NCBI GenBank assembly: GCA_020137815.1 | Contig: CM035353.1 | Span: 4,960,001-5,024,000, forward strand | DNA length: 64,000 bases | Source: Hormiphora californensis | Taxonomy: Eukaryota; Animalia; Ctenophora | Direction of reading: 5' to 3' | Shown: positions 18,864 to 64,000 of the stretch, piece by piece | How positions within the stretch are numbered: the stretch's first letter is position 1 | How the letters are laid out: the number at the start of each line of letters is the position of its first letter | Made by a program: the position numbers and the translations under genes | Notes under the pieces: model-generated | Told to the model about the DNA's origin: nothing | Databases searched by the model: none | What the model saw: only the letters and a program-made list of their open reading frames with translations

Positions 18864-19440
18864 TGGGATCCCATCAACAGTAAAACTCTAACTGATAATG
18901 GACCATGACAGTGATGGACGGTAGGCGGTAAATGTTAACCAGATCTGTGAGAATTTCGCACGTTTTTGCCCATAACTCAGCCATTTCTTGACCAATCTGC
19001 AAGATCTTTAGCTCATCGGAAAGAGGACATTGAGATCTTTCGAATGAGCTCAAGAAAATGAAAATTGGCGCAAATTGCGCAGCGTGGTGGCGAAAACGCG
19101 CATTTTGCGCCATGACGCCGCGCATTTTGCGCCGATTTTAGTTTTATTGGGCTCATTTGAAAGAGCTCAATGTCCTCTTTCCAACGCGCCCAAGATTTTG
19201 CAAATTGGTCAAGAAATGACTGAGTTATGGACAAAAACGTGGTTTTGCACGTACGTTTTCTCTCAGATCTGGTTAACATTTACCGCCTACCGTGATGGAC
19301 GATGGTTCTTTCTCTGTATTCTCTCTGTAGGCAGTACATTGGGCATGCCCGGGCGCGGGCGCGCACACGGAGAGAATACAGAGAAAGAACCATCACTGTG
19401 GTCCATTATCAGTTAGAGTTTTACTGTTGATGGGATCCCA
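18864..19440. mobile_element. Palindromic MITE flanked by TTAA, host of a nested MULE MITE
   Basis: tgggatcccatcaacagtaaaactctaactgataatggacca at the left end and its reverse complement at the right, TTAA on both sides. Confidence 0.75.
18920..19291. mobile_element. Mutator-type MITE (372 bp) with 9-bp TSD
   Basis: TIR ggtaggcggtaaatgttaaccagatctg and TSD gtgatggac at 18911-18919 and 19292-19300. Confidence 0.92.
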
Positions 19441-27802: not shown

Positions 27803-29667
27803 CATCTTTCTATAAAGAAAGATTGTGCATTGCTAATGGGAAAAGGAAGATTATCATAGAGGGTATTGTTAATAATCGGTACGCCTCGAACACCCACCCC
27901 TCCTCTAACCACCACCGTGGACTGTGGCAGAGGCGAGGAAAAAAAGAGAGAAAGATTATGCATTGCTAATGGGGAAAAGGAAGATGATCATAGAGGGTAT
28001 TGTTAATAATCGGTACGCCTCGAACACCCACCCCTCCTCTAACCACCACCGTGGACTGTGGTAGAGGCGAGGAAAGAGAGAGCTGCTTAAAGAGGGAGAG
28101 AGCGAGAGGGATACCTTGGAGGGAGAGCCGAGAGGGGGTACCTTGGGAGAGAGCGAGGGAGAGGAAGTGAGAGCCGAGAGGGGAAGAAATATAGGGCTCA
28201 GAGAGTGAGAGAGAGGTAGTTTCTTTCCAAGAATACTGAATAGCAGCTATCACGCGGTCTGATAATGGGAACACGTACAAACGCGTATATAACACTGCTA
28301 CGCAAGAGCTCAATCTCAACAACTATTTCCAGCAGCAGAATCTTCACTTGAACTGAACTTCTCAGCAGCCCCTTGAATTGAAATCAATGTCACCTTTCGT
28401 TCAATAAAATCGGATCGTTCATTGTTTTTCATATTATATTGTAAAACTCGTACAACCTCATGGCCAAATGAATATCATTTATAGATCCTAAAAAACTGAT
28501 CAGTTTTTTAGGAGCTACCTAATAAATAGTATTTATTTGGTGACATTGACACCTAGTGCGTGCGAGATCGAGCGGGGGTCGCGCCAGGTGTCTATGTTAC
28601 CAACCTATTTATTTGGCTCATCAATGAGCATAAAAAACTGATGAGTGACTCTCAAACGTCTCCACTCATCTATATCCCCCGCAGCCAGTAGTATAGTACT
28701 TTAGGTCGTTCGCACCGTGGTGCCACAGTTTGGCACTTGCTGTGTATCGCCAAAATGGCGCCACATTGACACCAAAATGGCGCCATTGTGGCGAATATTG
28801 AATGTCACCGTACTCTCTTTTCGGCAGATTTTTGCTCCATGACAGCTGGCGTTTTTCATTATCGTTTGCCCAACCAAATGGCTTCACCAGGGTTTGGGCC
28901 GTACAAAATGGACCTCAAATATGCAAGGATAGCAAGGATTCATATTTTTGGCTTTGCTACAGCCGATTTTACAAGTTGCGAAATATCGATTTTTTTAGGT
29001 ATTTTTGACCTCAGGACCACATTTTTGAGAAGCATGAAATTCTGGGAATATGTATGTATAAAGCTTTCCTGCCAATGATGTAGTGTACAGAGCTTGTTTT
29101 GTGAAACCAGCTTTTGTGAAAGATATAGAAATTCCATGTATCTCAAAAATGGCTGATTGTAGAGACCTGCCAACTCGATGCAGGTTTTGCAATATAAATC
29201 TTAGACATTTTATTTGTACCATACATAGTGTGTACCGTAATAGCAGTTTATTTAACACCCTCTTTTATTAAGCTAAATGTCAGTGTGGAAAATAATACGT
29301 CTCATTCTCTTTAGAGCTGCCTTGTGTGGAACAGTTGTTCTCACAGGTTCGTCAAATAATATCACGTAACAAATAAATATTTGATGCTTTTTACTTTTAT
29401 TTTGGGATCAGAGCACCCGCAACTAATCATTGATACTGAGAACGCTCATATATCAGCTGGTAGGAGGAATTAAATTCAATAATCAATGCTCTTGTGCTAA
29501 CAGGTAAAATTTAGTTTAGTTTTAAGTTTGTAAAATTTGTGGTAAATTTATTCACCCGGAGCCGTTCACTAGAGCCGTTCACACAAAAACAAACAGGAAA
29601 TGTGTGGCGCGCAATGCCGCAATGTAGCGTGCAATGTGGCGTGCAATGTGGGTAAGACTAAGCCGAA

Positions 29668-30254
29668 GCTGAAGCGGTAAATACTCACTCGGTTCTTCAC
29701 ATTTTTTGGACATTCTTGACCATAACTCAGCCATTTCTTGACCAATTTGCAAAATCTTGGGCTCATTGGAAAGAGGACATTGAGATCTTTTAAATAAATA
29801 AGGAACCATAATAAAGTTCAAGAGCCTCCAAGAGCGCACCAAAATCAAGAGAGACCAAAGTCAAGAGCACATCACAATTAAGAGAGACCAAATTCAAGAG
29901 CGCACCACATCTGGTATCTTTTGGATAGGGAGCTCACTTGGATGAGGTGCGCTCTTGATTTGGTCTCTCTTGATTGTGGTGCGCTCTTGATTTGGTCTCT
30001 CTTGATTGTGGTGCGCTCTTGATTTTGGTCTCTCTTGATTGTGGTGCGCTCTTGAACTTTATTATGGTTCCTTATGAGCCACCACGCCGCACAATTTGCG
30101 CCGATTTTCATTTTCTTAAGATCATTTGAAAGATCTCAATGTCCTCTTTCCAATGAGCCCAAGATTTTGCAAATTGGTCAAGAAATGGCTGAGTTATGGC
30201 CAAAAGCGTCCAAAAAATGTGAAGAACCGGCCGAGTGAGTATTTACCGCTAACC
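29668..30254. mobile_element. MULE-related MITE with internal atcaagagagaccaa/agagcgcacc repeats
   Basis: Inverted arms gcggtaaatactcactcgg...ttcttcacatttt share sequence with the 372-bp MULE MITE. An inverted partner starts near 63620. Confidence 0.7.
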
Positions 30255-30381
30255 TGCAATGTGACGTGCAACTTAGTGCTACTAAAACACAACGATTTGT
30301 TCTAAACAGTTTTAGTGACAAATAAATTTAGAAATGTCTGTCCATTGTCCCGCCTTCACATTAGATGGTTATGAAAATAAA

Positions 30382-30753
30382 GGTAGGCGGTAAATGTTAA
30401 CCAGATCTGAGAGAAAACGTACGTGCAAAACCACGTTTTTGTCCATAACTCAGTCATTTCTTGACCAATTTGCTAAATCTTGGGCGCGTTGGAAAGAGGA
30501 CATTGAGCTCTTTCAAATGAGCCCAAAAAAACTAAAATCGGCGCAAAATGCGCGGCGTCATGGCGCAAAATGCGCGTTTTCGCCACCACGCCGCGCAATT
30601 TTCGCCAATTTTCATTTTCTTGAGCTCATTTGAGAGATCTCAATGTCCTCTTTCCAATGAGCCAAAGATTTTGCAAATTGGTCAAGAAATGGCTGAGTTA
30701 TGGGCAAAAACGTGCGAAATTCTCACAGATCTGGTTAACATTTACCGCCTACC
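30382..30753. mobile_element. Mutator-type MITE (372 bp) with 9-bp TSD, absent from the inverted partner
   Basis: TSD gaaaataaa at 30373-30381 and 30754-30762. Empty site near 63495 (cctttattttcataacc). Confidence 0.92.
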
Positions 30754-30822
30754 GAAAATAAAGGTTGACGGGGAAACATAGCATTATGAAACTCTTGATT
30801 GCTTGTTTATTTTTAGTGGTTA

Positions 30823-32229
30823 CCGTAAGTTGGGGTAACTTTGGGGTAACTTTGGGGTAACTTTGTACCACTTTTTAGCATTCTCCTAAAATAACTCCTT
30901 GCCAGAACCACACTCGAAAATTTTTGAACCAAATAATCCCGTTCCAGACCTTCACCTAGTACACCAGATATAACTAGTGAAATTTTTGGTCCCCTCTCAT
31001 TTAATTACATTAATTAACGTGTATTTTAGTGTAAGTGGGGTTTTAGGGCATGGGGTAACTTTGGAATGAGGGTGGGGTAACTTTGGACACCCGTCCAAAG
31101 TTACCCCACGATAGTAATATTGGAACAAACATAAATCCAAACATTTTGCAATGATAAATAAATGAACCTAAAATGTTTAAATGGGGTTTAAATGTGTCAA
31201 TGAGTTAAAAAAGAACCATAGGGTTAGCCAAACGCCCCATGATTTTAAAAAATCAACTTTTTCGGGTGTAAGGAATGATGAAAACTAGCCACCAAATAAA
31301 ATTTCAGCTCAATCGGACTTGATTTAGAGGTTGCCACATGCGACCTGAAAACCATCAAACTTCAGTAATTTGGGGTCCCTCATCCATCCTGTAGATTGGT
31401 AGATGGTATTGGCCCTCTAGGCGAGTGTGTTTTAGTTCTTTTGCTGATTGGATAGCCAGGAATAGGGTCTACTTAGGGTAGTGGCTAAATAAAGGAGTTT
31501 CGGTACCTGTGCTCCTGATAGATTGTCTACAAGAACTAGAACACCGCCTAGAGATCCAATACCATATAACAAGCTACAGGATGATGAGGAACCCCAAATT
31601 ATTGAAGTTTGATGGGTTTCAGCCAGATTTCTGTGATTTAGCTCCATAAACTAGTCCAAATCCTAGTTTTTTCACAACATATCGAATAGATGGATGGAAA
31701 TGGGCGTGGAGTGGGCTGAATCTTGGTTATATGGCCCAAACAATTCAGAGAGGGTCAAGGCAACTGTACAGACATCAAAAGTTGAAAACCTATAGTGTGG
31801 GGTAACTTTGGCACCCCGTCCAAAGTTACCATAATTCAAAAATGGTGGGGTAACATTAGCCACCCCTATAGTCTCAAAAAGTAATTGATCGGGGTTGAAA
31901 AATGGTGCCCCGAATTATTTGATCGAAACCCTTCCACTCTATGGAGCAAACTTGATTCGGTCATTAGCCCGGTCAAATCTATGGTACCCATTTTGATTTG
32001 AACATTTTTAGCGATTTTGACATCAATTATGTTTGCCCCTAATTAGGAGCTAATAGCATAGAATTAAAAAAATAGTTGTACTGTTAGATAGACATTTGTG
32101 GGTCAATTACTTGTACACCCAAAAATTATGCCAAATCGTCGTTATCTGTTGGTAATTTGGACTAAAGCCAAATTTTGAAAGTGTCCAAAGTTACCCTGCA
32201 AAACAAAGTACCCAGAATCCAGATTACGG
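30823..32229. mobile_element. Non-autonomous pogo/Tc1-like element (ccgtaa.ttggggtaactttg TIRs)
   Basis: TA|ccgtaagttggggtaactttg, internal ggggtaactttgg repeats. The partner at 58469-63432 shows both TIRs with TA flanks. Confidence 0.75.
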
Positions 32230-32258
32230 GACTGGTTAGTATATTTATTGTATTTCAG

Positions 32259-33057
32259 ACTGGAAAGCTATACAGCGGAGTGTGAATACACCATGGGACC
32301 TCGAAGGAAGAACTCCTCTCAGATAAAGACGGACTCTACACTGGGTAGTGGTGAGATAATCTGGGTAAAGTTGTACAAGGAGAGCAGCGCGATGGCTACT
32401 TTCAAGGTAAAGTTCTCCTCCACAAGCAGTGTGAGATAGGCTGGTGTAACAGCAGCTACAACGGACCTGCCAGTACAACCCTCGGTGGAGGGGATAAGAC
32501 CTGGGCAATCACCAAAAACAGAGACCGCCCCATCATCACATGTAACAATGTGGAGGTGCTGAACTACCTGTTCGCAGATGTTCAGATAGCAACTGTGTTA
32601 CCAGGTGGGGTGGTGATGTTGTGGAGAAGATCAAGTTTAGCCCTTCTGACACAGCATCTGACTTCTACAGAGCAGGTTAGGGTCTCAATTTAATTCGAAA
32701 CGCTTCTATGCACATCACAGTGGGTTTAGTGTTATATCACAAAAGCTGGTTCAACTACAAATACAATGAACTACAACGTTTACCCAAGCTTTCCATAACA
32801 TATTACCTGTAATTATAATATCACCTGTAAATTACAATGAACTCATACTCATTACTATTTCCATTCCATATCAGTTGCGTGTTCTACTTTTACGTTGATG
32901 GATCGACACAAGGAAGTTGGCCTGCCTCATCAACAGGGACAACTGCACCATCGAATGTGCTGCCTCCCATATCCTAACGGAAGTGCAACTCTGACTTGTC
33001 AGGATGGTGGATCGTGGTCAACTGATATACCGCAGTGTGTCATTGTCAATAAAATTG
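32259..33057 (+). pseudogene. Indel-ridden copy of the modular-domain exon plus Sushi/CCP exon
   Basis: Inverted homologue of 58439-57637 with several 1-2 bp indels. Homology breaks inside the downstream donor (GTAtcg versus GTAAGT). Confidence 0.75.
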
Positions 33058-34350
33058 GTATCGCAGTGATTGGGGTGTCGAATTTTGAAGGCGAGCGCAA
33101 AAGCGCAAAATGCTCAGAGCTCTAATCTCTAATACCTACAATTAACTTGTCCAATTCGGATTCGGTCTTCTCTCACTTTAACGAAACACGGATTAAAATA
33201 TTTTTTCGCATACAAACTAGTCTTGAGTCTTGACTAGCGCTGACAATGGAAAATGATCACTATAGAGAAAACATGTTTGATCCTGACAGCCAACCGTACT
33301 TACGGTCAGGGTTCACACCAAATGCTCTATGTGTGTTCCGAGCAGTTCCTTGGTGCTTTAATCTGTTCCTAGTGTTCCTAGTCTGTTACTCATCGTTATC
33401 GGGTGTTTCTTGCTTGTTTCACACATCGCATTGAAATTTGAAGGGAGTTGTTTGATGGGGGGAATCGAACGACAACCGGTTACTAAATCATAAGAACTTC
33501 CTGGGAAAAGCGTTACATTAAAAATGGGTTCATATAAATCACGCTACAAGAAGAGTCACACTTACAAAGAAAATCTAATCAGTATCACAAAGCACATGGT
33601 ATAAAGTTTGTTAAATAAACTGAGCTCCCGAAATAATAATGAATGAGCGCCAGAGAAAATGTCACAGATTCCAGATAAGAGGTCTGCACACACTCTAGCA
33701 ATGCTGATATATGTCGCGCCGTCCCTTCTGCCCTGACCTCCGCGCGTTCCTTCCAGACTGAAGGTTCACTTCAGCATGAGGCTCACAGTTTCTACTGTTG
33801 GGCCAACAGTAGAAACTGGCCTGTACTTCTTCCTTCTGACATGTACACAGTTGAGAGCTCGTGAGTTGACTGTTGAGGCTAGATAAGTTGAAAGCTAGAT
33901 AGGATTATAATATAGTTGCTAAAGTGTTGTGGTTGAGGGTATGAGCTATCTGAAAATAATAACATTTAACATATTATATTTAACATAATATATATTGATC
34001 ATCAATTTTATGGAGTATCGACAGCTAGATAGTACGAAAGTGTGTCATAACCAACCTCCTCTTCCTCCTTTTTTTGCTAATTCCGCAGCATATGAAACAA
34101 TTGTTCTTAGCATGGCCTTAATCTGCGTCCCTATCAAGCTCACAGTGGGGTTTAGCATCTGTCTCATTATAATGCCCGAATACCCTCGCTCCTCCGACTC
34201 TCTCTCTCTGTTCTGCTTGAGCAATTCATTTTACAACTATATTATTACATTACATTTATAATGAAGTAAAACTAAATCAAATCAAATCAAAATCGCTTCT
34301 ATAACTATAACTCTGATATTTTCAACAACCAACAAATTGAAACAAGTAGG

Positions 34351-37940: not shown

Positions 37941-38456
37941 CATAATAATAATTCAGTAATATACCCAGTGTATAGTCCATTGGCATCTGGAAACCGCTTA
38001 CGAATCGCAATAACTGCACACCTTAGCAATGGAAGTCTGCCTTTTCCTTGTTGGCAGCAATATGCGACCATCCAGCGATAAGCAGTGTGGCGCATCAGTC
38101 TTTTCCACTCATTAGTGGGCTTTTTTGGGCATTTTTTACTTGTCGAGTAGAACAGCGGTTATCTCTAATCCTTCTTCATGTCTGAGAATCCTGAGAAATT
38201 CTGTATTCTTCGAAAGAGACTTACCTTCCGCACTTTCCAGTATCCAAATCTTTTACAACATACTTTTCGGAGATTGAAAGTTCTGCTGTCACGTGGCTGT
38301 AGCACATTCCAGTACCCCACAAATACAATCAATTTCATGGGGGCTGTAGTCTTCTTTGAGTATCTTCAGCTATGTTGGCATCACCTTCTCGCGTTGAACT
38401 CACAATTCACATCCCCCTTTTTGGATCATTTTTGCAATTGAACTGACTCGGCCATA
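37941..38456 (-). pseudogene. KolX / P2X7-ballast-like (Nanor-like) domain gene, decayed
   Basis: Minus strand gives DCICG...RKVCCK, a GTAAGT intron, then MRHTAYRWMVAYCCQQGKGRLPLLRCAVIAIRKRFPDANGLYTGY, matching R.AYR....G.R..P.C.V..IR..FP...G.Y.G. Confidence 0.7.
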
Positions 38457-40499: not shown

Positions 40500-40790
40500 C
40501 GTTATAGTCACTGTTGCAGTCCCTGAGTGGAATATTCCAAGGAATTTCCACTGCTGCAGCAGCACTGCAGCAGGCACTGCAAAGATGGAATATTCCAAGG
40601 AACTTCCACTACTGCAGCAGCACTGCAGCAGGCACTGCAAAGATGGAATATTCCAAGGAATTTCCACTACTGCAGCAGCACTGCAGCAGGCACTGCAAAG
40701 ATGGAATATTCCAAGGAATTTCCACTGCTGCAGCAGCACTGCAGCAGGCACTGCAAAGATGGAATATTCCCAGGAATATTCCAACCTTAT
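40500..40790. repeat. 58-bp minisatellite, about 4.5 copies
   Basis: ggaatattccaaggaatttccactgctgcagcagcactgcagcaggcactgcaaagat repeated head to tail. Confidence 0.95.
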
Positions 40791-41151
40791 AGGGACTGCA
40801 GTAGGAAATATTCCAATGTTAGGGTAACTGGGACTGCCGGGTATTTTAGGACGGTAAAATCCCTATCCATGACTGCAGCAAATAGTAAAATTCCTGCAGC
40901 AAAACGAGCTCCCAAAATGAAAATTCCAGGCGTGAAAAAAAAAATCGGGACACCGGGAATTCATGGCCTGGTGTCCCATGAGTTTTTTTTTCGCCGGGAA
41001 TGGTCGTTTGCCTGTGGCCGATTTGGCCGATTTTATCGTTTTTCATTTTTGACCAAATAGGTTCAATTATGACCAATTAATTTAAAAAAAGATAAAAGAT
41101 CAATTATAGTACGGTAATATGACGTCGAACAATAATATATTATACATGTAT

Positions 41152-41361
41152 TTAGAGCAAAACCTAATTGAAATTAGTTCGCCAGAAAGGTGGCCCATTT
41201 TGAACTTACTCCTTCATTTCCGTCACCTTTGAGTTGAGGCTTCAAAGACATTGAGGTATCCGTAAACTTTCCGCCTTCAACTCAAAGGTGACGGAAATGA
41301 AGGAGAAAGTTCAAAATGGGCACCTTTCTGGCGAACTAATTTCAATTAGTTTTTGCTCTAA
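41152..41361. repeat. Foldback palindrome
   Basis: ttagagcaaaacctaattgaaattagttcgccagaaagg is inverted as cctttctggcgaactaatttcaattagtttttgctctaa. Confidence 0.85.
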
Positions 41362-42079
41362 ATTTGTACTTTTTTTTGGTCGTTTGAGAGTCATTTATGA
41401 CCTCAAACAACTAAGATAATTGTCAAACAAAGTGTTCAAATGTAATTCAAATGTATCCTGGGATGTAGGAAGCTGATTTGACGAAATTTCAAAATTCGAC
41501 GTCGTTTTTGACGTCATGACGTCACATGTGACGTCACGACGACGTAAAAAATTATGACACGACTATTCGCCGATTAAGCACTAAACGTGTGGAAAGTTTT
41601 AAAGGCAGCAGTAGTCAAGAAATGAATTATTGCACGAAATGTGAGTTTTTGTGTAGATTTTCACATCAAATTTTAAGTTCCGACGCGTTTTAAGTCTAAA
41701 AATGACAAGTTAAGAAAATCACCTTATAGTATCTGAAAGTTCAGACAATTTGCCACTAACGATTTTCCGTCAAAATCAGGAATTGGAAAATGTCTTGAGG
41801 GTGTCTAGAGGCGTTTGAAAATATTTGGTCTGAGATTTTTAATGACGTCACTTTGTGACGTCATTATGCCCGTCATAGTGGACATTTTCACTTGGAACCT
41901 TAACTAATGCATGCCCCGAACGATTTCCTAACGGATAAAACTTAGTTCAACTCTCTAGCTAGTATTGTACAGGCTACAAGTGTTACACAGTGAAGCGTCT
42001 ATATATATATATCTATATTGTCTGACTGTTTTTATGAAGGAGTCATACTTTATCCCAATTCATTCTCATTTTGATCTTT

Positions 42080-42133
42080 GTCTACTGATGATTGGTGCCT
42101 CCTCGTGGGGCATCATGAAACATGTGTATAGAC
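42080..42133 (+). ncRNA. Type I hammerhead ribozyme, first of 12 copies (others start near 42530, 42985, 43440, 43895, 44347, 44798, 45255, 45712, 46169, 46626, 47083)
   Basis: gtcta CTGATGA t tggtgcctc-ctcgt-ggggcatca t GAAAC atgt GTA tagac: stem I gtcta/tagac, 9-bp stem II, short stem III AC/GT, GUA cleavage triplet. Confidence 0.9.
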
Positions 42134-45100
42134 CTTAAAAACTTCTGTTGTTTTTAATTTGTATAAACTGCTCGCCGGCTAACCCCGTGCTAGAGCTCTC
42201 TGTTGATCTCGGACCAAGGACAGGATATCTATCTTGTCATCACTCCACTAATCTCGCTATAATGCATGCTCCTTCAATTTATTTGTTGTAGAGCTCTCTT
42301 GTGATCTGAGGACACGTACGACGTCTGGTTTTAAGGAACTATGATCAAAATGGAATACAGATTACACAGTCCAAGAAAGGGAATGGTTGAAGTACTTTAA
42401 AACTGGGAATCTCGATGTCCAAGATACGAAGATGTGACGAAATGGTGCAACTAAATCAACTAGGAACGATTGACTGACTGTTTTTATGAAGGGTCATACT
42501 TATCCCAATTCATTCTCATTTTGATCTTTGTCTACTGATGATTGGTGCCTCCTCGTGGGGCATCATGAAACATGTGTATAGACCTTAAAAACTTCTGTTG
42601 TTTTTAATTTGTATAAACTGCTCGCCGGCTAACCCCGTGCTAGAGCTCTCTGTTGATCTCGGACCAAGGGACAGGATATCTATCTTGTCATCACTCCACT
42701 AATCTCGCTATAATGCAATGCTCCTTCAATTTATTTGTTGTAGAGCTCTCTTGTGGATCTGAGGACACGTACGACGTCTGGTTTTAAGGAACTATGATCA
42801 AAATGGAATACAGATTACACAGTCCAAGAAAGGGAATGGTTGAAGTACTTTAAAACTGGGGAATCTCGATGTCCAAGTACGAAGATGTGACGAAATGGTG
42901 CAACTAAATCTAACTAGGAACGATTGACGACTGTTTTTATGAAGGAGTCATACTTTATCCCAATTCATTCTCATTTTGATCTTTGTCTACTGATGATTGG
43001 TGCCTCCTCGTGGGGCATCATGAAACATGTGTATAGACCTTAAAAACTTCTGTTGTTTTTAATTTGTATAAACTGCTCGCCGGCTAACCCCGTGCTAGAG
43101 CTCTCTGTTGATCTCGGACCAAGGGACAGGATATCTATCTTGTCATCACTCCACTAATCTCGCTATAATGCAATGCTCCTTCATTTATTTGTTGTAGAGC
43201 TCTCTTGTGGATCTGAGGACACGTACGACGTCTGGTTTAAGGAACTATGATCAAAATGGAATACAGATTACACAGTCCAAGAAAGGGAATGGTTGAAGTA
43301 CTTTAAAACTGGGGAATCTCGATGTCCAAGATACGAAGATGTGACGAAATGGTGCAACTAAATCTAACTAGGAACGATTGACTGACTGTTTTTATGAAGG
43401 AGTCATACTTTATCCCAATTCATTCTCATTTTGATCTTTGTCTACTGATGATTGGTGCCTCCTCGTGTGGGCATCATGAAACATGTTGTAAGACCTTAAA
43501 AACTTCTGTTGTTTTTAATTTGTATAAACTGCTCGCCGGCTAACCCGTGCTAGAGCTCTCTGTTGATCTCGGACCAAGGGACAGGATATCTATCTTGTCA
43601 TCACTCCACTAATCTCGCTATAATGCAATGCTCCTTCAATTATTTGTTGTAGAGCTCTCTTGTGGATCTGAGGACACGTACGACGTCTGTTTTAAGGAAC
43701 TATGATCAAAATGGAATACAGATTACACAGTCCAAGAAAGGGAATGGTTGAAGTACTTTAAAACTGGGGAATCTCGATGTCCAAGATACGAAGATGTGAC
43801 GAAATGGTGCAACTAAATCTAACTAGGAACGATTGACTGACTGTTTTTATGAAGGAGTCATACTTTATCCCAATTCATTCTCATTTTGATCTTTGTCTAC
43901 TGATGATTGGTGCCTCCTCGTGGGGCATCATGAAACATGTGTATAGACCTTAAAAACTTCTGTTGTTTTTAATTGTATAAACTGCTCGCCGGCTAACCCC
44001 GTGCTAGAGCTCTCTGTTGATCTCGGACCAAGGGACAGGAATTTATCTTGTCATCACTCCACTAATCTCGCTATAATGCAATGCTCCTTCAATTTATTTG
44101 TTGTAGAGCTCTCTTGTGGATCTGAGGACACGTACGACGTCTGGTTTTAAGGAACTATGATCAAAATGGAATACAGATTACACAGTCCAAGAAAGGGAAT
44201 GGTTGAAGTACTTTAAAACTGGGGAATCTCGATGTCCAAGAACGAAGATGTGACGAAATGGTGCAACTAAATCTAACTAGGAACGATTGACTGACTGTTT
44301 TTATGAAGGAGTCATACTTATCCCAATTCATTCTCATTTGATCTTTGTCTACTGATGATTGGTGCCTCCTGTGGGGCATCATGAAACATGTGTATAGACC
44401 TTAAAAACTTCTGTTGTTTTAATTTGTATAAACTGCTCGCGGCTAACCCCGTGTAGAGCTCTCTGTTGATCTCGGACCAAGGGACAGGATATCTATCTTG
44501 TCATCACTCCACTAATCTCGCTATATGCAATGCTCCTTCAATTTATTTGTGTAGAGCTCTTTGTGGATCTGAGGACACGTACGACGTCTGGTTTAAGGAA
44601 CTATGATCAAAATGGAATACAGATTACACAGTCCAAGAAAGGGAATGGTTGAAGTACTTTAAAACTGGGAATCTCGATGTCCAAGATACGAAGATGTGAC
44701 GAAATGGTGCAACTAAATCTAACTAGGAACGATTGACTGACTGTTTTTATGAAGGAGTCATAATACTTTATCCCAATTCATTCTCATTTTGATCTTTGTC
44801 TACTGATGATTGGTGCCTCCTCGTGGGGCATCATGAAACATGTGTATAGACCTTAAAAACTTCTGTTGTTTTTAATTTGTATAAACTGCTCGCCGGCTAA
44901 CCCCGTGCTAGAGCTCTCTGTTGATCTCGGACCAAGGGACAGGATATCTATCTTGTCATCACTCCACTAATCTCGCTATAATGCAATGCTCCTTCAATTT
45001 ATTTGTTGTAGAGCTCTCTTGTGGATCTGAGGACACGTACGACGTCTGGTTTTAAGGAACTATGATCAAAATGGAATACAGATTACACAGTCCAAGAAAG

Positions 45101-47082
45101 GGAATGGTTGAAGTACTTTAAAACTGGGGAATCTCGATGTCCAAGATACGAAGATGTGACGAAATGGTGCAACTAAATCTAACTAGGAACGATTGACTGA
45201 CTGTTTTTATGAAGGAGTCATACTTTATCCCAATTCATTCTCATTTTGATCTTTGTCTACTGATGATTGGTGCCTCCTCGTGGGGCATCATGAAACATGT
45301 GTATAGACCTTAAAAACTTCTGTTGTTTTTAATTTGTATAAACTGCTCGCCGGCTAACCCCGTGCTAGAGCTCTCTGTTGATCTCGGACCAAGGGACAGG
45401 ATATCTATCTTGTCATCACTCCACTAATCTCGCTATAATGCAATGCTCCTTCAATTTATTTGTTGTAGAGCTCTCTTGTGGATCTGAGGACACGTACGAC
45501 GTCTGGTTTTAAGGAACTATGATCAAAATGGAATACAGATTACACAGTCCAAGAAAGGGAATGGTTGAAGTACTTTAAAACTGGGGAATCTCGATGTCCA
45601 AGATACGAAGATGTGACGAAATGGTGCAACTAAATCTAACTAGGAACGATTGACTGACTGTTTTTATGAAGGAGTCATACTTTATCCCAATTCATTCTCA
45701 TTTTGATCTTTGTCTACTGATGATTGGTGCCTCCTCGTGGGGCATCATGAAACATGTGTATAGACCTTAAAAACTTCTGTTGTTTTTAATTTGTATAAAC
45801 TGCTCGCCGGCTAACCCCGTGCTAGAGCTCTCTGTTGATCTCGGACCAAGGGACAGGATATCTATCTTGTCATCACTCCACTAATCTCGCTATAATGCAA
45901 TGCTCCTTCAATTTATTTGTTGTAGAGCTCTCTTGTGGATCTGAGGACACGTACGACGTCTGGTTTTAAGGAACTATGATCAAAATGGAATACAGATTAC
46001 ACAGTCCAAGAAAGGGAATGGTTGAAGTACTTTAAAACTGGGGAATCTCGATGTCCAAGATACGAAGATGTGACGAAATGGTGCAACTAAATCTAACTAG
46101 GAACGATTGACTGACTGTTTTTATGAAGGAGTCATACTTTATCCCAATTCATTCTCATTTTGATCTTTGTCTACTGATGATTGGTGCCTCCTCGTGGGGC
46201 ATCATGAAACATGTGTATAGACCTTAAAAACTTCTGTTGTTTTTAATTTGTATAAACTGCTCGCCGGCTAACCCCGTGCTAGAGCTCTCTGTTGATCTCG
46301 GACCAAGGGACAGGATATCTATCTTGTCATCACTCCACTAATCTCGCTATAATGCAATGCTCCTTCAATTTATTTGTTGTAGAGCTCTCTTGTGGATCTG
46401 AGGACACGTACGACGTCTGGTTTTAAGGAACTATGATCAAAATGGAATACAGATTACACAGTCCAAGAAAGGGAATGGTTGAAGTACTTTAAAACTGGGG
46501 AATCTCGATGTCCAAGATACGAAGATGTGACGAAATGGTGCAACTAAATCTAACTAGGAACGATTGACTGACTGTTTTTATGAAGGAGTCATACTTTATC
46601 CCAATTCATTCTCATTTTGATCTTTGTCTACTGATGATTGGTGCCTCCTCGTGGGGCATCATGAAACATGTGTATAGACCTTAAAAACTTCTGTTGTTTT
46701 TAATTTGTATAAACTGCTCGCCGGCTAACCCCGTGCTAGAGCTCTCTGTTGATCTCGGACCAAGGGACAGGATATCTATCTTGTCATCACTCCACTAATC
46801 TCGCTATAATGCAATGCTCCTTCAATTTATTTGTTGTAGAGCTCTCTTGTGGATCTGAGGACACGTACGACGTCTGGTTTTAAGGAACTATGATCAAAAT
46901 GGAATACAGATTACACAGTCCAAGAAAGGGAATGGTTGAAGTACTTTAAAACTGGGGAATCTCGATGTCCAAGATACGAAGATGTGACGAAATGGTGCAA
47001 CTAAATCTAACTAGGAACGATTGACTGACTGTTTTTATGAAGGAGTCATACTTTATCCCAATTCATTCTCATTTTGATCTTT

Positions 47083-47136
47083 GTCTACTGATGATTGGTG
47101 CCTCCTCGTGGGGCATCATGAAACATGTGTATAGAC
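47083..47136 (+). ncRNA. Type I hammerhead ribozyme, last copy, in the partial terminal unit
   Basis: Identical to the first copy. The array stops about 30 nt after it. Confidence 0.9.
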
Positions 47137-47204
47137 CTTAAAAACTTCTGTTGTTTTTAATTTGTATCTATATATCTATATATCTATATATATATATATA
47201 TATA

Positions 47205-47995: not shown

Positions 47996-49903
47996 ACTAA
48001 ACCCTTTCACATCAGACACTACTTGGTAGGAATATCCGCACGGGATGTGTTCCTTTTCCTCTCCCACAATTATTTCTCAACTCCCTCCACAAGGAGCTGG
48101 AAAACTGTGTAATTACATATAATTAGTACAGTAAAGTGACTGTCCTTAATTGCAACTTCCTGATTGCAATTTACTTAGCTAAATTAATAATGTTTAATGA
48201 TAATCTCCGGCCGTACAATTAACATTTAAAATAAATAAATAAGTAAATAAATAAATAAATAACAAATGGCCGTGTACTCTTCAGTCACTTATAGTACACC
48301 AGGGTTAAGTAATATAGTTGCAGTATATTGTATATTGTATCTCGTGCACCGGCAAAGTATAGGTTGAATTTATCCAGTAATGACTGCTGCTCGCACTTGT
48401 GGAGCAGAGGACAGGTAAAATTGTGACCTTGACAGACTCGCCGTGCAGATTCCATAATTCTTTCAGTAACAAGTGCTACAGTACGAGCACGTAGAATATC
48501 CAGCTGTACTGATAATTTGACAATATAATACTCCAGTCCTCCAACGAGAGGACCACCGACTTGCCAGAAATTCTGGCGTTGGTGATCCTCAGGGGAGTTG
48601 TTTCTGTATTAAAGTGGGTAAGGACCACGTCCCGGCGCAGCCGGTTTATGTCCGGTGGACCCTCACCGAGCCACTCTATCGTGGCTGTGGGTCGGGCCAC
48701 AGGGGGTGGCCTTCGTGGCGTCGTGTTTCAGCCCTGCACTCCCGGTTTAGGTTGGCTAGCATATATATATGATACATAACTATAGCTATTAAACATTCAA
48801 TAAAACATTTATTAATGGGAAATAACTTTATCTTGTCCATCAGATCATATGTGTCGTTACATTTTAAAATCCCATCTCATATATAGGAACTGGCATATTC
48901 GATCATCGTACGTCAGGAGTAGCTGTTTTGCTTCGTAACTTGAATTACGCTCGTTTTTACACTCGCATAGTCAAATAGAAACAAGTTAGTTAGTAACTAA
49001 CAAGTTAGTTAGTAACTAACTAACTTGTTTCTATTTGTATTTGCTCTCACCCTGTGATAGAGCACTGTCGGCACCCGGTGCACTGCAACTGCACTCGCAT
49101 AGTCCCTAATTTCAACTAAACGTATATTATATGTCTCGCCAACCGACCCGGAGAATATATGGGACACCCTGTATATATCTGCAGTGGTCCTCTTGACAAT
49201 GGCTGGCTGGCGGCTGGATCCTGAATGTCCTCGTAATTAGTGGCGGCTGGCTCTCGCTAATAATTCTCTATATTATGTATTATAATTTAATCGTCAAACT
49301 TGTAAAGCAGTAGCGCGAGGAATAATAATTCCTCACTAACTGTTTTCAATGTCGCTATCAGAATCACTGTCATTGTCAATGCTGTCTAAACTTTCATCAC
49401 TCGAAGATAGCTCAAGGTTATCAGATATGGGTTTTGTTTCTATTGTTTGACAAGATGTGCGGTCAAAAACAAAATCAAAATCATGAAAGTAGCAGTGTTT
49501 CAGAACTTGGTGATGCAGCTGGTTACCCGTTAAAAGTTGATCAAGCTTAGGTAGCATTGTCAAGCTATCTTGCCAATGTCGGATTATATGTCAAGCTAGT
49601 CCGAAACTAGGACCTCCAAAGCTGACCAAGTACGTTTCTTTACCTTTAGAGTGTTTCTTTAAGCTACTGTCAATAATTCTATCGCCCATTATATCCTGAT
49701 CCTGTGAGTTCTCCTGACTTTATTAGAACACATTAATTCTTCAAAGGAAAAATATACAAAAGATTTTCATTTTCAGTGTCAAGTAGCATAATCACTATCA
49801 CTATAATCGCTTTCACTAACACTACTCTCAGTATCACTTTCATCATCATGATGATCATGAGACAATCCTCTTCAATCTCTTCGTCCGTTTCGCTATCACT
49901 ATT

Positions 49904-53616: not shown

Positions 53617-53950
53617 TTATGAACCTACCTCAGCCCCAGCTCGTGCCACTGTCAGAGTGAAATCTTCGAAGTTGCAGATGTATTCCTCTATGTCCATTTC
53701 TTTTTCAACCCTACTATGCACACTGTCAGCACTCATAAATGTATGGCCGGGCTCGAAAAAGCGAAGGGTAATGCTCTCGAGGTTCCTCAAAGTGGGCAGG
53801 GGAGACGTTAGATTATCAGAACTGGTCCGCTCGGTATTTCCCATCATGACAGATAGGGTCGAGAAGAGAGTCCAATTTTTGTTTTGCCCAGTACAATTAT
53901 CGCACCACAAAACAAGTTTCTTCACCCCTTCTTTGTCTACCCCCGTCTAC
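53617..53950 (-). mobile_element. Sola1-like DDD transposase fragment
   Basis: LWCDNCTGQNKNW...FFEPGHTFMSADSVHSRVEK...FEDF, with the DNC.GQNKN and GHT...D catalytic motifs. Confidence 0.8.
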
Positions 53951-57141: not shown

Positions 57142-57636
57142 TATATTGTATATAGAGAGAGTGTGAGAGAGAGAAGGGGGTGAGAGAAAAGAAATTATTA
57201 ATTGGTAAAAATTGTAAGATTTAGTTATTTTTATTGGGAAAAACATTTAAACCGAAAATTATAAAAGCAAATAGATTTCGTCAAATATCTGTCGTTATAC
57301 AACCAAGGAGGAACATAAATTGCACGAGAAAACTCAAAACACAAAATATACATAACTTAATATATATCTGAGTTTTTAAGGGCTGTATGATAAGGGGAAG
57401 TGAGGGGTTGGTGAGGGGTGAATATCATGTACATAGCTACCCATGTGGCCTGATCTGGTATGATGGTATGAAGAATACATGAGGATACGATAACATGAGG
57501 ATATGCCATGAAGATAACTAGATCTCCCACCATCCAGGAAGAACCAGTTTTACCTTTTTTTCATTATGTATATTGCAAAATAAGTAGTAATTAATTTCAT
57601 TTACATATTTTGATGAAATTTAGTTAATTAACTTAC

Positions 57637-57822
57637 CAATTTTATTGACAATGACACACTGCGGTATATCAGTTGACCATGATAGATCATCCTGACAAGT
57701 CAGAGTTGCACTTCCCGTTAGGATATGGGAGGCAGCACATTCGATGGTGGCAGTTGTCCCTGTTGATGAGGCAGGCCAACTTCCTTGTGTCGATCCATCA
57801 ACAGTAAAAGTAGAACACGCAA
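57637..57822 (-). CDS. Sushi/CCP domain exon (phase 1-1, 62 codons)
   Basis: cag|...ACSTF...GTTATIECAASHILTGSATLTCQDDLSWSTDIPQC...|GTAAGT, with four Cys and the conserved Trp. Confidence 0.85.
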
Positions 57823-58022
57823 CTGATATGGAATGGAAATAGTAATGAGTATGAGTTCATTGTAATTTACAGGTGATATTATAATTTACAGGTAATATGT
57901 TATGGAAAGCTTGGGTAAACGTTGTAGTTCATTGTATTTGTAGTTGAACCAGCTTGTGTGATATAACACTAAACCCACGTGATGTGCAATAGAAGCGTTT
58001 CGAATTAAATTGAGACCCTAAC

Positions 58023-58439
58023 CTGCTCTGTAGAAGTCAGATGCTGTGTCAGAAGGGCTAAACTTGATCTTCTCCACAACATCACCACCCCACCTGGTAA
58101 CACAGTTGCTATCTGAACTATCTGCGAACAGGTAGTTCAGCACCTCCACATTGTTACATGTGATGATGAGGGCGGTCTCTGTTTTGGTGATTGCCCAGGT
58201 CTTATCCACCTCCACCGAGGGTTGTACTGGCAGGTCCGTGTAGCTGCTGGTACACCAGCCTATCTCACACTGCATTGTGGAGGAGAACTTTACCTTGAAA
58301 GTAGCCATCGCGCTGCTCTCCTTGTACAACTTTACCCAGATTATCTCACCACTACCCAGTGTAGAGTCCGTCTTTATCTGGAGAGGTGTTCCTTCGAGGT
58401 CCCATGGTGTATTCACACTCCGCTGTATAGCTTTCCAGT
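58023..58439 (-). CDS. 139-codon phase 1-1 exon encoding a beta-rich extracellular module of the same gene
   Basis: Open exon WKAIQRSVNTPWDLEGTPLQIKTDSTLGSG...CEIGWC...CNNVEVLNY...DTASDFYRA between a tttcag acceptor and a GT donor, in phase with the Sushi exon. Confidence 0.8.
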
Positions 58440-59597
58440 CTGAAATACAATAAATATACTAACCAGTACCGTAATCTGGGGTAACTTTGTTTTGCAGGGT
58501 AACTTTGGACACTTTCAAAATTTGGCTTTAGTCCAAAATTACCAACAGATAACGACAGATTTGGCATAATTTTTGGGTGTACAAGTAATTGACCCACAAA
58601 TGTCTATCTAACAGTACAACTATTTTTTTCAATTCTATGCTAATTAGCTCCTAATTAGGGGCAAACATAATTGATGTCAAAATCGCTAAAAATGTTCAAA
58701 TCAAAATGGGTACCATAGATTTGACCGGGCTAATGACCGAATCAAGTTTGCTCCATAGAGTGGAAGGGTTTCGATCAAATAATTCGGGGCACCATTTTTC
58801 AAACCCGATCAATTACTTTAATTGAGACTAATAGGGGTGGCTAATGTTACCCCACCATTTTTTGAATTATGGGGTAACTTTGGACGGGGTGCCAAAGTTA
58901 CCCCACACTATAGGTTTTCAACTTTTGATGTCTGTACAGTTGCCTTAGACCCTCTCTGAATTGTTTAGGGCCATATAACCAAGATTCAGCCCACTCCACG
59001 CCCATTTCCATCCATCTATTCGATATGTTAGTGAAAAAAACTAGGATTTGGACTAGTTTATGGAGCTAAATCACAGAAATCTGGCCTGAAACCCATCAAA
59101 CTTCAATAATTTGGGGTTCCTCATCCATCCTGTAGCTTGTTATATGGTATTGGATCTCTAGGCGAGTGTTCTAGTTCTTGTAGACAATCTATGCAGGAGC
59201 ACAGGTACCGAAACTCCTTTATTTAGCCACTACCCATAAGTAGACCACTTCCTGGCTATCCAATTCAGCAAAAAGAACTAAAACACACTCGCCTAGAGGG
59301 CCAATACCATCTACCAATCTACAGGATGGATGAGGGACCCCAAATTACTGAAGTTTGATGGGTTTCAGGTCGCATGTGGCAACCTCTAAATCAAGTCCGA
59401 TTGAGCTGAAATTTTATTTGGTGGCTAGTTTTCATCATTCCTTACACCCGAAAAAGTTGATTTTTTAAAATCATGGGGCGTTTGGCTAACCCTATGGTTC
59501 TTTTTTAACTCATTGACACATTTAAACCCCATTTAAACATTTTAGGTTCATTTATTTATCATTGCAAAATGTTTGGATTTATGTTTGTTCCAATATT

Positions 59598-60856
59598 CCA
59601 ATTTCATTCTCGTCTTACAACTTATCGTTTTGCATCGAATTTCGTCTTCTTGTTTTTAACAGTACCACAGCAAATGGCTACCTTGTAGCTTTTATACAAA
59701 GCAGCGAAAAAATGGAGATCGACAAAAACTGGTACGATGAATGGACACAAAAAGTGAAGAGGCTACCAGTCACCATGAACAACGTTCTGGGGAGAGAATG
59801 GGAGGCCGACCAGAAGAACGGATGGAAGGACGCCACTTGGCAGATAATGCGAGGTGAAAACTGGGATGCTTTGATTGAACTAATGGAAAATACGGTTAAA
59901 ATGTACAAACTGCTGAACGACGCCGATGATATCTTCGCCAAGTCCACTACAAATGAATCTGCCAAGCAAACAGCTGTGGACAAACTAAGTGCAGACAAGG
60001 AAACCGCAGATTGCGAGGAATCGTTGGCGGATATGGAATCGGTCGGTAATGCATCTGAGTCACTATCCTGGATGCTTGATCGCAAATTGGAATTAGATGA
60101 TTATGCATCTGGCCCTGGGTCACTATCAATGTCTAGTGAAATTGCTTCCTATAAAGAGGAAAAAACGGGACCCACTGACAAGCGGCAGAATGTTATCGTG
60201 TTTTTACCTGCAGACATGGATGGCTCTATTCAGGATGAGGCGATTGAAAAAGCTTTTGCATACCTTGGGTGTGAACAATTTAGTATAATGAACACGGAAA
60301 TGGTCAGGGACAGAGGTGAGGACTGCAACGGGAAAATTGTACTTAGAGTACAAATGAACACAGTAAAACAAGCATCAAAAGCCCTTGCTAATGCGTACAA
60401 ACTGAAGAACTACCCTGTGCCTGGAATCTACATTGCCAAGGATATGACATACCATCAACGGCTAAAGATGCGAGAACTTGTGAAGACTCTACGGTACAGG
60501 ATAGAAATGCAACCAAAGTACCGATGGAAAATTGTTGATTGGGAAGTGGTTAACGTTGGTCGTTTCAAGAAACAAGAGCAAGATTTCAAGCATGATTTGA
60601 TGAACAGTTATAGTGGTTCACTGGATAGTATTTCTAGTGGACCACTATAGTCAGTGGTGAAGTTTTTTTTTGAGACAAATATGGAGTAATACGAGAAGTC
60701 AATAAAACTGAGTTCAAAGGGTGTCCTGCCTAATGCAGACACCTACGATATAAACATTTTGAAATTACTATAGTGGGACATGGAAGTGAGTCTAGACATT
60801 ATTTGCGTAGAGTACATGTCGAGTTGGCCGTGTGGCCAAAATCTTTATTATTATTA
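59598..60856 (+). mobile_element. ORF1-only non-autonomous non-LTR retroposon (HAL1-like)
   Basis: Insertion relative to the empty site near 31116, TSD aatatt (59592-59597 and 61493-61498), 3' hairpin ttggcc-gtgt-ggccaa, (TTA)n tail, one intact ORF. Confidence 0.75.
59712..60650 (+). CDS. LINE ORF1-like protein (312 aa)
   Basis: RQNVIVF...VLRVQM...LANAYKLK...IYIAKDMTYHQRLKMRELVK resembles the RRM/CTD region of CR1/L2/L1-type ORF1p. No RT follows. Confidence 0.75.
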   Translation: MEIDKNWYDEWTQKVKRLPVTMNNVLGREWEADQKNGWKDATWQIMRGENWDALIELMENTVKMYKLLNDADDIFAKSTTNESAKQTAVDKLSADKETADCEESLADMESVGNASESLSWMLDRKLELDDYASGPGSLSMSSEIASYKEEKTGPTDKRQNVIVFLPADMDGSIQDEAIEKAFAYLGCEQFSIMNTEMVRDRGEDCNGKIVLRVQMNTVKQASKALANAYKLKNYPVPGIYIAKDMTYHQRLKMRELVKTLRYRIEMQPKYRWKIVDWEVVNVGRFKKQEQDFKHDLMNSYSGSLDSISSGPL

Positions 60857-63191: not shown

Positions 63192-64000
63192 TCCAAAGTT
63201 ACCCCATGCCCTAAAACCCCACTTACACTAAAATACACGTTAATTAATGTAATTAAATGAGAGGGGACCAAAAATTTCACTAGTTATATCTGGTGTACTA
63301 GGTGAGGTCTGGAACGGATTATTTGGTTCAAAAATTTTCGAGTGTGGTTCTGGCAAGGAGTTATTTTAGGAGAATGCTAAAAAGTGGTACAAAGTTACCC
63401 CAAAGTTACCCCAAAGTTACCCCAACTTACGGTAACCACTAAAAATAAACAAGCAATCAAGAGTTTCATAATGCTATGTTTCCCCGTCAACCTTTATTTT
63501 CATAACCATCTAATGTGAAGGCGGGACAATGGACAGACATTTCTAAATTTATTTGTCACTAAAACTGTTTAGAACAAATCGTTGTGTTTTAGTAGCACTA
63601 AGTTGCAGTCACATTGCAGGTTAGCGGTAAATCCTCACTCGGCCGGTTCCTCACATTTTTGGACGCTTTTGGCCATAACTCAGCCATTTCTTGAACAATT
63701 TGCAAAATCTTGGGCTCATTGGAAAGAGGACATTGAGATCTTTCAAATGATCTTAAAAAATGAAAATCGGCGCAAATGCGCGGCGTGGTGGCTCATAAGG
63801 AACCATAATAAAGTTCAAGAGAGCGCACCACAATCAAGAGAGACCAAAATCAAGAGCGCACCACAATCAAGAGAGACCAAATCAAGAGCGCACACAATCA
63901 AGAGAGACCAAATCAAGAGCGACCCTCATCAAGTGAGCTCCCTATCCAAAAGATACCAGATGTGGTGCGCTCTTGAATTTGGTCTCTCTTAATTGTGATG

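Follow-up and report, generated by a model that had tools for sequence, protein, structure and literature searches.

The window, by which we mean the whole 64-kb stretch of DNA analysed, contains a plus-strand tandem array in which a 457-bp unit is repeated head-to-tail 11.3 times with 98% matches (TRF; Table 1). The array consists of 112 nt up to the first predicted cut site, 11 cut-to-cut monomers and a 36-nt tail, and it carries 12 type I hammerhead cores. Its left edge lies 63 nt 5′ of hammerhead 1 and its right edge 31 nt 3′ of hammerhead 12, or 36 nt past the predicted cut site of that hammerhead. With a longest stop-free stretch of 47 codons, the unit type has no long ORF; it is non-coding with a GC content of 0.40, below 50%, as animal non-LTR retrozymes require. 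No LTR layout is apparent in the array.

A preliminary description had placed about 11.3 units and 12 hammerheads at 42020..47166, with edges about 60 nt before the first hammerhead and about 30 nt after the last, 11 monomers between the two outermost cleavage sites, cuts after 42128 and 45303 and no long ORF, and our results agree with it on these points. Its remark that the unit is unusually long does not stand, as 457 bp falls within the range of published sizes: 150-450 bp for animal retrozymes in sections of Cervera and de la Pena 2020 (PMC7229834), 463-505 bp for pDo500 (PMC2808323) and 51-972 bp for retrozymes in excerpts of Li, Clavereau and Pollet 2026 (bioRxiv 10.64898/2026.07.22.740005).

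Table 1. Features of the array and its flanks (positions in the window).
Feature	Position	Strand	Basis or comment
High-copy host repeat beside array	41360..42016		contig comparison
Left (TA)n/TATC target	41999..42018		sequence; low complexity
Tandem array, 11.3 x 457 bp	42017..47167	+	TRF and motif positions
Hammerhead 1	42080..42133	+	CTGATGA core 42085, predicted cut after 42128
Hammerhead 2	42530..42583	+	CTGATGA core 42535, predicted cut after 42578
Hammerhead 3	42985..43038	+	CTGATGA core 42990, predicted cut after 43033
Hammerhead 4	43440..43494	+	CTGATGA core 43445, predicted cut after 43490
Hammerhead 5	43895..43948	+	CTGATGA core 43900, predicted cut after 43943
Hammerhead 6	44347..44399	+	CTGATGA core 44352, predicted cut after 44394
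Hammerhead 7	44798..44851	+	CTGATGA core 44803, predicted cut after 44846
Hammerhead 8	45255..45308	+	CTGATGA core 45260, predicted cut after 45303
Hammerhead 9 (reference)	45712..45765	+	core 45717-23, predicted cut after GUA at 45760
Hammerhead 10	46169..46222	+	CTGATGA core 46174, predicted cut after 46217
Hammerhead 11	46626..46679	+	CTGATGA core 46631, predicted cut after 46674
Hammerhead 12	47083..47136	+	CTGATGA core 47088, predicted cut after 47131
Monomers 1-6, small indels	42129..44846	+	comparison against identical type
Monomers 7-11, mutually identical	44847..47131	+	unit comparison
Predicted competing hairpin, every unit	45757..45797	+	prediction only
36-nt tail, insertion 3′ end	47132..47167	+	register of loose-end pile, three DNA runs
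Right (TA)n/TATC target	47165..47204		sequence; low complexity

Five of the units are identical and the remaining six differ almost wholly by small indels: set against the identical type, they lack 29 bases, have 5 extra ones and carry 1 substitution. Four deletions in the first unit are filled in contigs of run X3, so the indels of monomers 1-6 are likely assembly errors. With these set aside, the units appear uniform at the sequence level, and no periodic variant pattern is found among them. The head-to-tail joint is present in contigs of X3 and X5. Its depth in X3 is 751, and the exact-type contig there stands at about 15-30 times the depth of long contigs (751 vs 24.5-48.8), a ratio that serves as a rough guide only. 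The left junction is bridged by no contig among those compared with the array.

The hammerhead motif

The reference hammerhead has a 5-bp stem I (45712-16/45761-65), a 9-bp stem II (45725-33/45739-47) with a U·U at its base (45724/45748) followed by GAAA (45749-52), and a 2-bp stem III closed by an AUGU loop. Position 10.1-11.1 is thus U·U rather than G-C, a known natural hammerhead variant. The preliminary description had called the motif minimal, which it is not in the published sense because of its 2-bp helix III and tetraloop. Minimal PLE hammerheads are defined by the lack of a helix III stem-loop and by a G10.1-C11.1 pair; with its helix III, tetraloop and U·U, the array motif was rejected as a member of that type.

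A full type I descriptor recovers 11 of the 12 motifs and misses hammerhead 4, which is broken as assembled by three single-base indels that are likely sequence errors. The descriptor has no match outside the array on either strand of the 64-kb window, and no antisense hammerhead is found on its minus strand. Since the background is one match per 20,000 random 457-mers of similar composition, a hammerhead motif in every unit far exceeds chance. The Rfam search that had been suggested as a check gave a different outcome: there were no matches at the gathering threshold, and none of the 20 weak matches that appear when E is relaxed to 10, which we take as chance, is to a hammerhead family.

The predicted MFE is -17.3, against -12.9 for the hammerhead fold, as the fold criterion for animal non-LTR retrozymes allows. 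Helix III is predicted at +2.4 kcal/mol as a monomer hairpin, whereas two copies could form an in-register 8-bp helix III at -6.0 kcal/mol, which is compatible with a dimer. Two listed substitutions fall inside the hammerhead and both preserve the motif: one at 45745 turns a G·U of stem II into G-C, and one at 45760 turns GUA into GUU. Variant positions number 4/86 in the hammerhead plus tail and 27/371 in the remainder of the unit (p 0.48), a comparison confounded by the 5% listing threshold.

Insertion site, 3′ end and dispersal

The array (42017-47167) lies in a (TA)n tract, as expected of a Penelope-type target. A candidate 9-bp target duplication (42010-42018, repeated at 47165-47173) overlaps the unit start by 2 nt and the unit end by 3 nt, and is not provable within low-complexity (TA)n/TATC sequence; target duplications of animal non-LTR retrozymes, when present, are longer than 4 bp. 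Another copy of the host repeat at 41360-42016 continues, in one contig, into TATC repeat and not into the unit.

Contigs from three DNA runs, rather than a genome assembly, indicate that the family is dispersed at many loci and present in two organisms, A (X3, X5) and B (X11). At least 42 contigs in these runs exit the unit at 45794-45798, +34 to +38 from the cut site, accounting for 8 of the 18 loose-end rows listed. Their continuations are dissimilar (agreement 0.45-0.7), and this register is the one at which the array itself stops. No second end register occurs among the 18 rows listed, to which all these statements refer; 124 further rows exist. Some loose ends may belong to diverged families that lose likeness there rather than mark insertion ends. 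Diverged 80-84 nt pieces comprising a hammerhead plus tail are also embedded in unrelated long contigs (2667, 2279 and 748 nt).

The shared end sits at the base of a predicted hairpin that would compete with the hammerhead and bury its cut site (inner stem 45767-74/45782-89; outer pairing of 45757-64 with 45790-97). In the finished RNA, stem I is predicted to have a pairing probability of about 0.02. Among 1000 shuffled tails, 47 pair over the cut site equally well and 293 reduce stem I equally, and a modelled hairpin lock on the hammerhead would thus be a weak signal. The circular fold is 62% paired yet not more stable than shuffles (z 0.24); highly self-paired circles are a published trait of animal non-LTR retrozymes, for which no standard based on shuffles is given.

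RNA runs offer little signal. In X15, the sole RNA run with a flank control, flank depth is 5-11 and unit depth about 4, with over half of the unit uncovered and no RNA signal above the flank. Given the abundance of retrozyme circles in coral and mussel, strong coverage could have been anticipated here. Contigs cannot reveal circular RNA. X24, by guess an RNA run of organism A, contains hardly any words of the unit, and X8, whose RNA status is likewise guessed, has one unit contig at depth 2.6. The exact 20-nt motif pattern has no match in metagenome contigs; a looser pattern matches 18 metagenome loci, which we regard as chance matches since none has stems I and II or is unit-like, and has no match in viral contigs. 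A sigma-70 scan, for a promoter type not relevant to an animal, gave chance-level results.

The host is likely a ctenophore, judged from one window protein, P0002, which shares 91% identity over 62% of its length with a Pleurobrachia bachei record. No RT or GIY-YIG Pfam family was detected among 272 window ORFs (87 shorter, distant ORFs lay outside the scan), and the autonomous Penelope-like layout, in which an RT plus GIY-YIG ORF lies between repeats, was not encountered in the window. Naiad PLEs are recorded in two other ctenophores. Our literature searches found no report of hammerhead retrozymes in ctenophores, consistent with the earlier remark that none was described in this lineage; in the one paper that mentions 'ctenophore' alongside ribozymes, the term is purely metaphorical.

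Relation to known elements and route of origin

The array resembles the non-LTR retrozymes of coral, mussel and axolotl, as described in sections of PMC7229834 and excerpts of Li, Clavereau and Pollet 2026, in its few-hundred-bp tandem non-coding units, GC below 50%, type I hammerhead per unit, many genomic copies and proposed PLE partner and circle template. It differs in that its host is likely a ctenophore and its RNA circle is so far only proposed. Predictions have the active fold blocked in this circle, something that PMC7229834 reports for only some mussel circles, and we met no discussion of a fixed 3′ end in those portions of either source. Axolotl HHR_Amex2 (Rtz_353), whose monomer cleaves to 22% and whose dimer does far better, shares the 2-bp helix III with tetraloop and the U·U at the base of helix II; the array differs from it in its long (9 bp) helix II, its 5-bp helix I that is not extendable into a loop I, and its unit length (457 vs about 350 bp).

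Other likenesses are to PLEs. Their hammerheads have a long helix II, short helix I and palindromic loop III (PMC4209133), and they have fixed ends downstream of the hammerhead, with a 30-40 bp tail between two start sites. PAc nicks AT-rich DNA, with its RT starting from fixed internal sites shortly 3′ of the hammerhead (PMC11167929); Hydra, Neptune and Naiad elements have AT-rich or (TA)n targets, with (TA)n used by Hydra and Naiad PLEs (PMC8557442). In contrast to PLEs, the array lacks an ORF, a G10.1-C11.1 pair and an inverted 5′ copy at the locus (no minus-strand unit match in the window), and it has a single end register among the rows listed. As in pDo500 (cave cricket), whose repeat is of similar size, and newt satellite 2, the hammerhead lies in a tandem repeat, but the array is short, uniform and dispersed with insertion marks, and not a large satellite block.

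We conclude that the array is very probably a non-LTR retrozyme of the known animal class, in what is likely a ctenophore genome, and that it probably inserted recently as one copy of a dispersed non-coding element. Dispersal, the fixed 3′ end and the (TA)n target support the previously suggested class of non-LTR retrozyme served in trans by a PLE RT, as does the absence of an RT or GIY-YIG match in the window. The class being known, such an array is by itself no surprise. With it, the known hosts of hammerhead retrozymes likely come to include ctenophores, beneath the published range of 'cnidarians to mammals' (PMC7761336), and horizontal transfer may be the source of the array.

The fixed end and the (TA)n target site point to target-primed reverse transcription of the Penelope type. 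An RT starting 36 nt past the cut site would run off a cleaved linear monomer after at most 36 nt unless it jumped. The cut sites of the template must therefore have been intact or rejoined, which suggests a circle or an uncut multimer. On the circle route, read-through transcription of an array would yield multimers, and the hammerheads would cut after GUA, probably as pairs given the predicted helix III energies of one and two copies. Monomer closure would fall to a host ligase, on the model of RtcB (PMC7229834). From the point at which synthesis reaches +34 to +38, folding predictions have the tail base-paired across the cut site, and this would keep the circle closed. After a Penelope-type endonuclease had nicked (TA)n, reverse transcription would begin at the base of the tail hairpin, run through the rejoined cut site 36 nt later and halt at an arbitrary point. 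We give an even chance to this route as a whole, in which a Penelope-like RT wrote the array in a single step by about 11 rounds on a 457-nt RNA circle. That one hairpin serves both as hammerhead lock and RT start mark, with the array recording an RT rolling round a circle, is a tentative and rather doubtful proposal. If true, it would place the retrozyme-Penelope partnership in comb jellies and provide a young, uniform substrate for the circle-template model.

The same element and a Penelope-type enzyme could instead have used an uncut read-through multimer or repeated template jumps, with circles uninvolved and a hammerhead that is slow or mostly locked. The U·U weakens the motif, stem I is predicted to be almost unpaired in finished RNA, X15 signal does not exceed the flank, and 8/9 Xenopus retrozyme dimers did not cleave in vitro according to excerpts of Li, Clavereau and Pollet 2026; PAc reverse transcription, moreover, is independent of cleavage, using unprocessed RNA, and its hammerhead mutants insert normally (PMC11167929). 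We nevertheless consider this unlikely, as it requires a transcript of at least 5 kb with 12 uncut sites, and the core is intact in both organisms with two listed core changes tolerated, a sequence pattern that suggests selection for cutting, in numbers too small to test. Growth in place by unequal crossing-over from an initially short insert, a partial tandem of about 1.3 to 2.3 units as is usual for Penelope elements, is proposed in excerpts of the same preprint, where families mostly have 7 units or fewer and some 180-300. It would leave identical two ends and, if recent, uniform units; against it stand the lack of a periodic variant pattern and the similar rough exact-unit amounts in both organism A samples, neither decisive, and we hold it to be quite unlikely.

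We find it very improbable that the unit is a pseudo-LTR of an autonomous Penelope-like element and the locus a deleted or pLTR-only copy. The long helix II, short helix I and missing loop I are PLE-type proportions, Xenopus retrozymes match pLTRs (excerpts of Li, Clavereau and Pollet 2026), and the long contigs that contain the diverged 80-84 nt pieces could be such elements, but the window has no RT or GIY-YIG match, the unit is joined head-to-tail at high depth and the G10.1-C11.1 pair is missing. Derivation of the unit from a pLTR is also compatible with the circle route. An assembly artefact of copy number, through a collapsed or inflated repeat, is favoured by the uncorrected indels in the left half of the array and the unbridged left junction; it is extremely unlikely, given that the errors are peculiar to each of units 1-6, which is what a long read across genuine copies would produce, and given the depth of the tandem joint and, as a rough guide, of the exact-type contig in X3. 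With its end fixed 36 nt past the cut site, the array makes the long-proposed, unproven copying of circles concretely testable: circle, uncut multimer and in-place growth predict distinct RNA forms, RT products and long-read alleles.

Tandem hammerheads and the class of the array

The tandem array spans 42017-47167 with a period of 457 bp and 11.3 copies, and carries 12 hammerhead cores on the plus strand, one in each unit plus one, as the preliminary description had stated. The cuts after GUA that it placed at 42128 and 45303 are both among the 12 predicted, and the lack of a long ORF is borne out by stop-free stretches of at most 47 codons in the six frames of the unit type. No second, inverted copy of the unit was found in the 64-kb window. 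Counted from cut to cut, monomers 7-11 are identical; relative to this type, monomers 1-6 lack 29 bases, have 5 extra ones and carry 1 substitution. Aligning read contigs to the first unit (at least 4 indel positions compared) restored the bases absent at 42217, 42265 and 42302 over the entire depth of X3 (a DNA run of organism A) and the base absent at 42404 over 1510 of 2117 of that depth; these checked deletions are assembly errors. We infer the same for the remaining indels of monomers 1-6, so that the array would be nearly uniform and young. The head-to-tail joint occurs in contigs of X3 (depth 751) and of X5, a second DNA run of organism A.

A full type I descriptor matches 11 of the 12 motifs, the fourth being disrupted by indels as assembled; it has no other match on the two strands of the window, and it matches 1 of 20,000 random sequences. 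The Rfam search proposed earlier, run on the window, reported no hammerhead family, so the identification relies on the descriptor together with anatomy described in the literature. The motif has a stem I of 5 bp, a stem III of 2 bp with an AUGU loop, and a stem II of 9 bp over a U·U mismatch at 10.1-11.1, a natural variant already known (accessible text of PMC3088659). The motif had been called minimal, a term contradicted by its difference from the definition in the available part of PMC4209133, though its helix II is long and its helix I short, as in the Penelope-like element (PLE) hammerheads treated there. It also fits the text description of axolotl HHR_Amex2, whose monomer cut 22% and whose dimer cut far better (PMC7229834, accessible part). 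Of the substitutions listed for the read contigs of the unit, two lie in the motif, both of tolerated types: one at 45745 turns G·U into G-C, and one at 45760 turns GUA into GUU. Helix III is predicted at +2.4 kcal/mol as a monomer hairpin, whereas two copies could form an in-register 8-bp helix III at -6.0 kcal/mol, suggesting that the active mode is likely a double hammerhead.

By its sequence, the array falls within the definition of an animal non-LTR retrozyme. Its unit length, previously thought unusual, is ordinary beside published sizes of 150-450 bp (PMC7229834), 463-505 bp for pDo500 (PMC2808323) and 51-972 bp (bioRxiv 10.64898/2026.07.22.740005), as given in the accessible parts of these sources. 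The proposed check for linkage to a reverse transcriptase (RT) or GIY-YIG gene, run within the window, gave no match to either family among 272 ORFs (30, all 97 others of at least 55 aa within 35-54 kb, and the 145 longest of 232 elsewhere), and the locus falls outside the definition of an autonomous PLE. We found no ctenophore hammerhead or ribozyme in the accessible text of the open-access literature (the PMC7229834 supplement may list further taxa), and term look-ups in PMC7761336, PMC5680766 and PMC3088659, as far as their searchable text goes, gave none. This is consistent with the earlier statement that the lineage lacked a description; the array belongs to a known class and is likely its first example noted in a ctenophore, within reach of open-access searches. 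The only ctenophore Penelope elements found were Naiad PLEs of Beroe and Mnemiopsis (PMC8557442, in part). The word "ctenophore" beside ribozymes in the available text of 10.64898/2026.03.07.710320 is a metaphor and refers to no comb-jelly ribozyme.

Related units, insertion ends and the tail hairpin

Unit words are present in 20 of the 24 runs listed, 8 of which hold at least half of the words; they include seawater runs, which fits a planktonic animal. With contigs aligned to the unit centred at the cut site, matches numbered 130 in X3, 379 in X5 and 197 in X11 (a DNA run of organism B). X3 and X5 are two samples of organism A, and X3 may be the window's own source. Organism A holds a second unit subfamily and organism B a diverged relative. 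The second subfamily (X3, X5) has ~15-20 differences from the exact type, and the two have about equal depth in X3 (728-759 and 751-845, respectively).

Of 18 loose-end entries listed (124 further exist), 8 lie at 45794-45798, comprising at least 42 contigs with unlike continuations; the listed entries hold no left-end register. These positions are +34 to +38 past the cut after 45760 (ninth hammerhead), and the array itself ends in the same register, at +36. For a part of these contigs, the break may mark where a diverged family loses similarity rather than an insertion end. Diverged hammerhead-plus-tail modules of 80-84 nt (aligned at 45714-45798) are embedded in long unrelated contigs of X3, X5 and X11 (2667, 748 and 2279 nt; 13, 14 and 7 mismatches), and are candidates for a partner Penelope element or sister families. 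(TA)n/TATC borders the array on both sides; a 9-bp stretch there is a candidate duplication, and each junction has an overlap of 2-3 nt. On the left, the flanking DNA is itself repeated at high copy number, and in one contig of X15 (an RNA run) holding another copy of it, a TATC repeat follows where the unit would stand.

Folding predictions, which cover secondary structure and leave out tertiary contacts, place the fixed end at +34 to +38 at the base of a tail hairpin: 45757-45764 could pair with 45790-45797, closing the hairpin and burying the cut site. The predicted probability of stem I is ~0.4-0.5 when the RNA terminates at +29 to +34 and drops to ~0.01 at +38, and imposing stems I and II would cost 5-6 kcal/mol at 37 °C. 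Among shuffled tails, 47 of 1000 lock equally and 293 of 1000 reduce stem I equally, making the predicted lock a modest signal. A result against the proposal is that the fold predicted for the circle does not surpass those of shuffled sequences (z 0.24).

Route of copying

In the accessible text of PMC11167929, a PLE protein (PAc) nicks AT-rich DNA and reverse transcription begins at fixed internal sites downstream of the hammerhead, and (TA)n is a favoured target of Hydra and Naiad PLEs (PMC8557442, in part). The fixed end and (TA)n target seen here agree with such a Penelope-like mechanism. An RT starting 36 nt past the cut would run out of a cleaved monomer template after 36 nt; an 11-unit product would thus require a circle, an uncut multimer, repeated template jumps by the RT or later lengthening of the array in place.

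We favour a circular template, giving it about an even chance, since the core is intact in two organisms and circles are made elsewhere in the class; our data are also compatible with an uncut multimer, with jumps and with growth in place. Counted against the circle, and in keeping with an uncut template, are the Xenopus retrozyme dimers of which 8 of 9 stayed uncut (bioRxiv 10.64898/2026.07.22.740005) and the dispensability of cleavage for PAc (PMC11167929), both as reported in the accessible text. A hint in favour comes from a single shallow contig of X15 (record 5; 82 nt, depth 4.15, at 42127-42162), which seems to repeat a 52-nt cycle made up of the tail, starting no more than 2 nt from the cut, and ~16 further letters. 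Possible sources are a tiny circle, a concatemer formed in the library, or tail-only insertions arranged in tandem in the genome. X15 otherwise gives no RNA signal for the unit above that of its flank, covering the flank at depth 5-11 and part of the unit at ~4. X8, an RNA run by guess, has one contig (depth 2.6) wrapping round the unit, and X24, guessed to be RNA of organism A, has almost no unit words.

Other features of the window

Predicted cuts and other features by window position
Feature	Position	Strand	Details
Predicted cuts after GUA	42128, 42578, 43033, 43490, 43943, 44394, 44846, 45303, 45760, 46217, 46674, 47131	+	
Helitron helicase-like fragment	3187-3522	-	PF14214, E 2.6e-8; duplicated region, repeats 3484-4663 / 7157-8408
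ORF with C-type lectin domain	14087-14695	-	PF00059, E 2.7e-12
Tandem array	15124-15500		92 bp x 4.1
Palindromic repeat family	18919-19291, 29870-30754, 63192-64000		370-520 bp, 97-99% alike
Tandem array	27816-28082		134 bp x 2
Inverted duplicate	31116-33060 and 57634-59597		1.97 kb, 97% identity
P2RX7_C	37943-38158	-	sub-threshold Pfam match
Tandem array	40528-40783		58 bp x 4.4
Near-perfect palindrome, MITE-like	41150-41363		214 bp, arms 51 + 45 nt
Palindrome	48965-49044		80 bp, 37-nt arms
DUF7869	53620-53946	-	sub-threshold Pfam match
Sushi domain match	57623-57856		end of 1.97-kb inverted duplicate
374-codon ORF	59526-60650		no Pfam match; end of 1.97-kb inverted duplicate

The type I descriptor found no hammerhead in the other three tandem arrays, and the two sub-threshold matches are possibly transposon remnants. 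A 300-codon ORF (19828-20730, minus strand), which we take to resemble a seven-helix receptor, has no match in a Pfam scan. Among 2634 candidates it has a single homologue (91% identity across 62% of the ORF, E 1e-103), filed under Pleurobrachia bachei in EukProt. This one protein makes a ctenophore related to Pleurobrachia the likely source of the window. The 214-bp palindrome lies immediately to the left of the high-copy repeat next to the hammerhead array.
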